Source: Escherichia coli
GTDB taxonomy: Bacteria > Pseudomonadota > Gammaproteobacteria > Enterobacterales > Enterobacteriaceae
Direction: 5' to 3' (one strand)
NCBI RefSeq assembly: GCF_002854065.1
Contig: NZ_CP024153.1
Length of the DNA stretch: 64,000 nucleotides
The notes under the pieces were generated by a model. It worked only from the letters and a program-made list of their open reading frames with translations. It did not search any database and was not told the origin of the DNA. Below are positions 57,151 through 58,517 of this stretch, in pieces. The number at the start of each line of letters is the position of its first letter. Positions within the stretch are counted from its first letter, which is position 1. The position numbers were made by a program, and so were the translations under genes.

Positions 57151-57774
57151 TCGACATGTATGTAGCTTGTGTTATCCGTGGATTGTGCAGCTCAGCTGGT
57201 CGTATGGCGGAGTGTCCCCCGTAACCGGCCGCGTGCGGCCGCTAACGCGCAGTACGGCCCCCCCCGTGGGGGACGTGCGGCAGCTGCGTGGCGGTGAGCG
57301 GGATTAGGGCTTTGCAGCTACCGTGTTAAGTTCCCTGGTGTCGCTGAAAGAGTTGATGAACATCCCCCTAAGCGTCAGCAGCAAGCTGCCGCCGCTAAGT
57401 CCCCGGAAATCACGCCCTTTACGTCGTAAACGCCGTAAAGCCCGCTCACCGGGGTTAAAAGGGATTACTTTGACTTCTTCATTGCTGTTCGCGAGTTAAG
57501 GCTAATCAGGGCAGGGGGTAGGGTGGCAGAATTTATAGCCCGGCAACGGGCTACGCCGGGCTTTCGGCGCCATTTTACAACACAGACACATGTAACCTCA
57601 TCTGGCGCCTCCATGCCGCTGACGCGGCATTCAGAAGCTTCCCAATGCTGTAGGTTTTAACATCTGCTTTATGTCAGAAGCGGATGGTTCAGAAGCCAGC
57701 AGTTTCCAATAACAGATATAGTATCGAACCGGATACTCATGATTTTTGGGTGACGCTGCCAACTTACTGATTTA

Positions 57775-58080
57775 GTGTATGATGGTGTTTTTGAGGTGCT
57801 CCAGTGGCTTCTGTTTCTATCAGCTGTCCCTCCTGTTCAGCTACTGACCGGGGTGGTGCGTAACGGCAAAAGCACTGCCGGACATCAGCGCTATCTCTGC
57901 TCTCACTGCCGTAAAACATGGCAACTGCAGTTCACTTACACCGCTTCTCAACCCGGTACGCACCAGAAAATCATTGATATGGCCATGAATGGCGTTGGAT
58001 GCCGGGCAACTGCCCGCATTATGGGCGTTAGCCTCAACACGATTTTACGTCACTTAAAAAACTCAGGCCGCAGTCGGTAA
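57775..58080 (+). pseudogene. insA: IS1 insA with frameshift near the 5' end (canonical GTG-start frame stops after 19 codons)
   Basis: Window has CTGACCGGGG where canonical IS1 is recalled as CTGACGGGG; ORF track protein has a non-canonical 27-aa N-terminus lacking the first CxxC of the zinc finger. Confidence 0.7.
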
Positions 58081-58124
58081 CCTCGCGCATACAGCCGGGC
58101 AGTGACGTCATCGTCTGCGCGGAA

Positions 58125-58502
58125 ATGGACGAACAGTGGGGATACGTCGGGGCTAAATCGCGCCAGCGCTGGCTGTTTTACGCGTATGACAGGCTCCGGA
58201 AGACGGTTGATGCGCACGTATTCGGTGAACGCACTATGGCGACGCTGGGGCGTCTTATGAGCCTGCTGTCACCCTTTGACGTGGTGATATGGATGACGGA
58301 TGGCTGGCCGCTATATGAATCCCGCCTGAAGGGAAAGCTGCACGTAATCAGCAAGCGATATACGCAGCGAATTGAGCGGCATAACCTGAATCTGAGGCAG
58401 CACCTGGCACGGCTGGGACGGAAGTCGCTGTCGTTCTCAAAATCGGTGGAGCTGCATGACAAAGTCATCGGGCATTATCTGAACATAAAACACTATCAAT
58501 AA
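58125..58502 (+). CDS. insB: IS1 InsB reading frame (normally expressed as InsAB' by frameshifting)
   Basis: 125 aa [22 protein letters not shown]... Confidence 0.85.
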
Positions 58503-58517
58503 GTTAGAGTCATTACC

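Follow-up and report, generated by a model that had tools for sequence, protein, structure and literature searches.

The window, that is, the whole stretch of Escherichia coli DNA that was analysed (64,000 nucleotides of contig NZ_CP024153.1), carries a complete IS1 element of an IS1SD-like isoform. The element is 769 bp long and lies on the plus strand at positions 57749-58517; comparison with IS1A found no second IS1 within the 64-kb window. Its ends, reading frames and right-hand neighbour are as follows, in window coordinates.

57749-58517, plus strand: IS1SD-like IS1, 100% identical to copies annotated as 'IS1-like element IS1SD family transposase, frameshifted'
57749-57771, plus strand: IRL, found by pattern match, T6C relative to IS1A
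57804-57863, plus strand: truncated insA with GTG start, 19 codons and TAA stop, by translation
57848-57849, plus strand: +1 insertion, CC against a single C in canonical IS1, the sole gap against IS1A
57853-58080, plus strand: rest of the insA frame (second CxxC and HTH), out of frame with the start codon
58056-58062, plus strand: A6C motif for the programmed -1 frameshift that makes InsAB', intact, read directly
58125-58502, plus strand: insB, DDE catalytic part, open and intact (Pfam DDE_Tnp_IS1, E = 3.9e-73, profile 7-131 of 131)
58495-58517, plus strand: IRR, G758A relative to IS1A
58518-59366, plus strand: 5'-truncated IS911 (orfB remnant) abutting the right end of IS1, from the annotation of identical loci

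The full-length alignment to IS1A of E. coli K-12 (NC_000913 19796-20563, 768 bp) gave 98.6% identity, with 10 substitutions and exactly one indel, the extra C at 57848/57849. The first-pass annotation had described an IS1 with a 1-bp insertion and had proposed alignment to reference IS1 sequences as a check; the alignment to IS1A bears out both the insertion and the coordinates, which are the exact ends of the element. Assignment to IS1 is secure. The element has the expected length (769 bp against ~768 bp), imperfect inverted repeats of ~23 bp starting with GGTRATG, an identity to a named isoform above the 95% that was required as a minimum, and the A6C site for -1 frameshifting between insA and insB' (TTAAAAAAC). 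The domains PF12759 and PF03400 are matched in full, and PF03811 is matched in full only after removal of the C. The 8-9 bp target-site duplication of an IS1 insertion is absent from the window copy, whose flanks read ...ATTTTTG / CATTATC....

The extra C changes the canonical CTGACGGGG to CTGACCGGGG at codon 16/17 of insA. Translation from the GTG at 57804 then runs for 19 codons to a TAA at 57861-57863, as had been claimed. The remainder of insA is left in the +1 frame, in an open reading frame of 101 amino acids (57775-58080) that covers only positions 15-35 of the 35 in the Pfam profile Zn_ribbon_InsA (PF03811); the earlier statement that this frame lacks the first CxxC thus also stands. 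Full domain matches were obtained for HTH_Tnp_IS1 and for DDE_Tnp_IS1 (ORF 58125-58502) despite the frameshift. When the C is removed in silico, a 232-amino-acid InsAB' is restored that differs from that of K-12 only by G76S, S130R and V136D.

The only alternative in-frame starts are four GTGs, at 57775, 57796, 57853 and 57856. The products from all four lack the first CxxC, and inspection by eye found no well-spaced Shine-Dalgarno sequence for any of these GTGs. A natural isoform with a working alternative start, the possibility that the first pass had itself raised against its reading, was rejected on these two grounds; furthermore, the insertion is common to several SNP backgrounds, none of which has such a start. 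An autonomous IS1 has an uninterrupted insA from the GTG, whereas here the stop comes after 19 codons and the copy is annotated as 'frameshifted'. The same word is used in the NCBI annotation of every inspected extra-C copy that bears an IS1 annotation, and the lesion is already known in the sense that it is flagged as a pseudogene in public annotation. The element instead has the make-up of a non-autonomous one, with intact ends and no self-encoded transposase. On the translated frames, neither InsA nor the InsA-InsB' fusion could be produced from the copy's own start; InsAB' is lost as well because InsA and InsAB' use the same N-terminus. Probably no functional protein is made from the window copy, although low-level reinitiation or recoding may give some.

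To the right of IS1, the IS911 remnant keeps a 279-amino-acid ORF in the orfB frame, while its 5' part (orfA and the left end) is cut off at the right end of IS1. It is followed by 43-bp sopC-like repeats, sopB, sopA and a RepFIA-type initiator. The repeats occupy 59528-59734 with 4.8 copies, adjoin sopB/sopA (59818-61964, minus strand) and resemble the sopC centromere of F-type partition systems. To the left, ~600 bp separate IS1 from a tandem array at 56063-57148 that consists of 29.4 copies of a 37-bp GC-rich unit, GGGCGGATTTCCACACGGCACCGGCGCCCGGCAAGGT. The length of this array varies between otherwise near-identical plasmids, and the long minus-strand ORFs that overlap it may be repeat artefacts.

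The missing target duplication implies that one flank was replaced after insertion, in a later rearrangement. The IS1/IS911 junction is common to 70 E. coli records, and most identical copies of the element share one locus, the truncated IS911 beside sopAB/repFIA. Because the junction recurs in this way, the copy at this locus must have been inherited with the plasmid backbone, and the window copy is most likely carried passively there. It lies without a target duplication at a conserved locus and gives no sign of movement of its own since gaining the C.

Two further IS1 copies flank rclA in many related plasmids. The first, at a place here called site B, lies upstream of rclA in inverted orientation, has the extra C and is two SNPs away from the window copy. 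The second, at site C, lies between rclA and an IS66-family element and has the extra C on a background eight SNPs away. The window is without the 5.8-kb module that holds these copies (IS1 - rclA - IS1 - IS66-family ISEc22), with the junction at 56063-56066; the module is present in pNT1W25-tetX4 (L003, 7069-12846). In related plasmids it lies between an IS30 region and the 37-bp array, and the two IS1 copies that bracket rclA are inverted and both carry the extra C in many plasmids.

Identical copies, with 100% identity over all 769 bp, are found in dozens of plasmids sequenced independently by different groups. The E. coli plasmids among them come from pigs, humans, poultry, pigeons and water. 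A sequencing error in the window was ruled out by these many identical independent records. For a wider count of the allele an exact 61-mer spanning the insertion was used. It was found in 88 of 8,298 IS1-bearing E. coli records (~1%); the other IS1-bearing E. coli records, among the matches listed, align with a one-base gap at the extra C. At least 90 plasmids in PLSDB also contain the exact 61-mer, including plasmids of Salmonella enterica, Klebsiella pneumoniae and Shigella flexneri. One carrier of the allele is the IncC plasmid pYU39 of Salmonella Typhimurium strain YU39 (isolate YUHS 05-78, Mexico). A 35-mer with the extra C had no exact match in GTDB with one genome per species, and in a metagenome collection it matched a single contig, with the same left junction as the window. 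To judge from these records, the extra-C allele does exist but is rare, and no IS1 isoform has it as its normal form.

It is most improbable that the C is an error of sequencing or assembly in what is truly a normal 768-bp IS1. The observation that speaks for an error is that the same locus occurs without the C in three plasmids, pSTB20-1T, pYUSHP31-1 and CP139131, whose intact copies are 100% identical to the window copy minus its C. Moreover, pYUSHP31-1 (L019) and pNT1W25-tetX4 differ over 13,946 bp by no substitutions and two single-base gaps, which are two Cs, one in each of two IS1 copies. Such an error would, however, have to recur in the work of many groups, over many years and countries, in no fewer than 88 records of E. 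coli and no fewer than 90 plasmids of PLSDB, and the C is copy-specific within a plasmid, with neighbouring IS1B-type copies in the same assembly lacking it. With this many laboratories reporting the identical allele, the resequencing that had been suggested for the site is unneeded.

Two indels without a single SNP rather suggest that the three exceptions arose by indel-only polishing or by concerted reversion. In pSTB20-1T and pYUSHP31-1, the two of the three that were fetched, site B is also without the C. The C-less plasmids are thus more likely to represent polishing artefacts that affect indels only, or a concerted reversion, than the ancestral state, which seems unlikely since pYU39, whose incompatibility type is a different one (IncC), already has the C in its site B copy. 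The tag in this way exposes three assemblies that miss the C from two copies at once, possibly as an artefact of polishing.

The fetched loci contained 28 full-length extra-C copies, with 10 distinct sequences in 11 flank contexts. Since the fetched sample is smaller than the full set of 88 E. coli records, there are at least 10 extra-C backgrounds, and the number of independent insertion events is likewise a lower bound. No second disabling lesion was found in any of the 28 sampled copies. A relic confined to a single locus and passed on by vertical inheritance only was rejected, as the allele is present in 11 flank contexts.

In some plasmids site C is occupied, at the same insertion site, by an intact IS1B-type copy. 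Only alignment columns 100 (the C) and 224 distinguish an intact site-C-type copy in pYU39 from the extra-C version. Such a pattern in the aligned copies is what exchange by recombination or gene conversion among IS1 copies leaves behind. On the left of its window-type copy, pPT62-37kb has the flank of site B. The rclA segment of this plasmid (L002, 3701-6769) is inverted relative to other plasmids, with its endpoints in two inverted extra-C IS1 copies, and the inversion is consistent with homologous recombination between these two copies.

An IS1B-like extra-C copy is also found upstream of a plasmid-borne rpoH, in plasmids from Korea, the Galapagos and the UK, two of them typed IncY. It adjoins a cluster of rpoH, encapsulin and Dyp-peroxidase genes (L017, L022, L023 and L024, with L017 and L024 being the IncY plasmids). 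The copy in L017 lacks its first 10 bp, and that in L024 is split by an IS3-family element. The full-length copies in L022 and L023 have the same sequence as the chromosomal pgaB::IS1 copies described below. The extra-C tag is also a marker for a family of IS-rich resistance plasmids with several replicons (IncFIA/FIB/X1, IncC, IncY).

Three chromosomal insertions of extra-C copies were identified, in EC24, in EC96 and in pgaB, each with a target duplication of 8-9 bp. They are sister copies and not the window copy itself. The EC24 copy lies in a prophage with an 8-bp duplication, TGAAACCA, and is identical at 769 of 769 positions to the copy that EC24's own plasmid carries at the window's locus. 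This haplotype is mosaic and was found in no other sampled copy. Three internal SNPs set it apart from the window copy, whose terminal SNPs at positions 6 and 758 it shares; the IRL with T6C is therefore present also in a copy that transposed. The EC96 copy, between yjiC and uxuR, is flanked by a duplication of 9 bp, AGCCGTCAA, and the site C copy on the plasmid of EC96 has the identical sequence. The chromosomal insertion site is unique, other strains having an IS1A ~49 bp away. The pgaB::IS1 insertion has a 9-bp duplication, TTGCACTTC, and was found in three genomes, each of which has the extra C in this copy. The EC24, EC96 and pgaB sites are free of canonical IS1 in 5,426 genomes, and no other genome among these has an IS1 at the exact EC24 site. 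The chromosomes of EC24, EC96 and EC11 have IS1 at 9 to 40 or more places, counted regardless of intactness.

These duplication-flanked copies could be read as canonical insertions that were later converted by recombination, the extra-C element itself being a dead relic. Replacement or conversion at a fixed site clearly occurs, as at site C, and the haplotypes are mosaic. The reading is nevertheless improbable. The EC24 chromosomal copy equals its plasmid donor over all 769 bp, and conversion is unlikely there because the two copies agree even at SNPs that lie 6 bp from the left end and 11 bp from the right end, with almost no flanking homology left; a canonical occupant that could have been converted was found at none of the three insertion sites in the 5,426 genomes. 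Gene conversion as the sole source of the duplication-flanked copies was judged unlikely on account of the unique sites and the end SNPs of EC24.

The extra-C element is thus most likely non-autonomous but not immobile, moved by InsAB' in trans. The first-pass annotation had called the copy probably immobile unless complemented. The dependence on complementation is retained, as a deduction from the reading frames, while 'probably immobile' does not hold for the allele, given that sister copies have inserted anew with duplications. It has been reported that InsAB' acts in trans on immobile IS1 copies and on mini-IS1 elements with IRL and IRR only, ~25-fold more weakly than in cis (PMC12903888), and that independent movement in K-12 is confined to consensus copies (PMC12428005). 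The duplication-flanked insertions would accordingly have used transposase supplied in trans, an intact donor being assumed.

The proposed mechanism is as follows. The extra C ends translation of insA after 19 codons, so that neither the InsA repressor nor InsAB' can be made from the element's own start. With intact IRL and IRR, A6C site and DDE frame, the element would remain a substrate for InsAB' provided by an intact IS1 in the cell, and it would in addition offer 769 bp of homology for RecA-type recombination. By recombination the allele would have reached other IS1 copies, and by transposition mobilised in trans it would have reached new sites. A non-autonomous IS1, passively carried at the window locus, with its allele spread by both of these routes, is the reading that we hold with considerable confidence.

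An element that is still autonomous, by reinitiation at GTG 57853 or 57856 or by +1 recoding at GAC-CGG-GGU, is very unlikely. In its favour, the two in-frame GTGs precede the TAA of the short ORF by 5-8 nt, and the allele, which has made new insertions, is maintained on 10 or more backgrounds without a second lesion. Against this, a reinitiated product would lack the first CxxC, and the ZF+HTH N-terminus shared by InsA and InsAB' is described as required for end binding (PMC12903888, citing Ohta 2004). In addition, a slippery motif suited to a +1 shift is lacking, many other IS1 copies are present in every host with a fresh insertion, and the allele is rare among IS1-bearing records. A self-sufficient element, whose transposase would work without the first CxxC and which would make no full-length InsA inhibitor, has no positive support and is equally hard to credit. 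If true, self-sufficiency would explain the persistence of the allele on many backgrounds and its continued new insertions. The preferred reading remains that of a non-autonomous IS1 mobilised in trans.

For biology at large the finding is of little import, as IS1 is among the best-studied insertion sequences and this copy of it is disabled. What is modestly new is that a one-base tag documents, for natural plasmids and chromosomes, how a defective IS1 is mobilised in trans and also spreads from copy to copy. As a natural tag, the extra C indicates that a transposase-less IS1 still jumps from plasmid to chromosome in field isolates, and such insertions add evidence from nature to recent laboratory measurements of the trans activity of InsAB'.

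Compared with known systems, the window copy has the same ends, gene layout, A6C site and DDE region as IS1A and IS1R (768 bp; E. coli K-12, R100), from which it differs by the extra C, 10 substitutions and the lack of a target duplication. It shares the InsAB' variant with G76S, S130R and V136D with elements of the IS1SD type (the NCBI name; for example WP_236919600.1 in pYUSHP31-1), but unlike the intact IS1SD type the window copy and most of its relatives are frameshifted and annotated as pseudogenes. The mini-IS1 and immobile IS1 of Ord et al. 2025 (PMC12903888) likewise depend on IRL/IRR and an outside transposase, with weaker activity in trans than in cis; those substrates were engineered, or were non-consensus with intact ORFs, whereas the lesion here is a natural point frameshift. 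Other non-autonomous IS derivatives (defective IS, MITE-like elements) have similarly kept their ends, lost their transposase and spread by means of a related autonomous element. In contrast to these, the window element has kept its full length, its lesion being a single base and not an internal deletion, and the extra-C allele also spreads by recombination into other IS1 copies.
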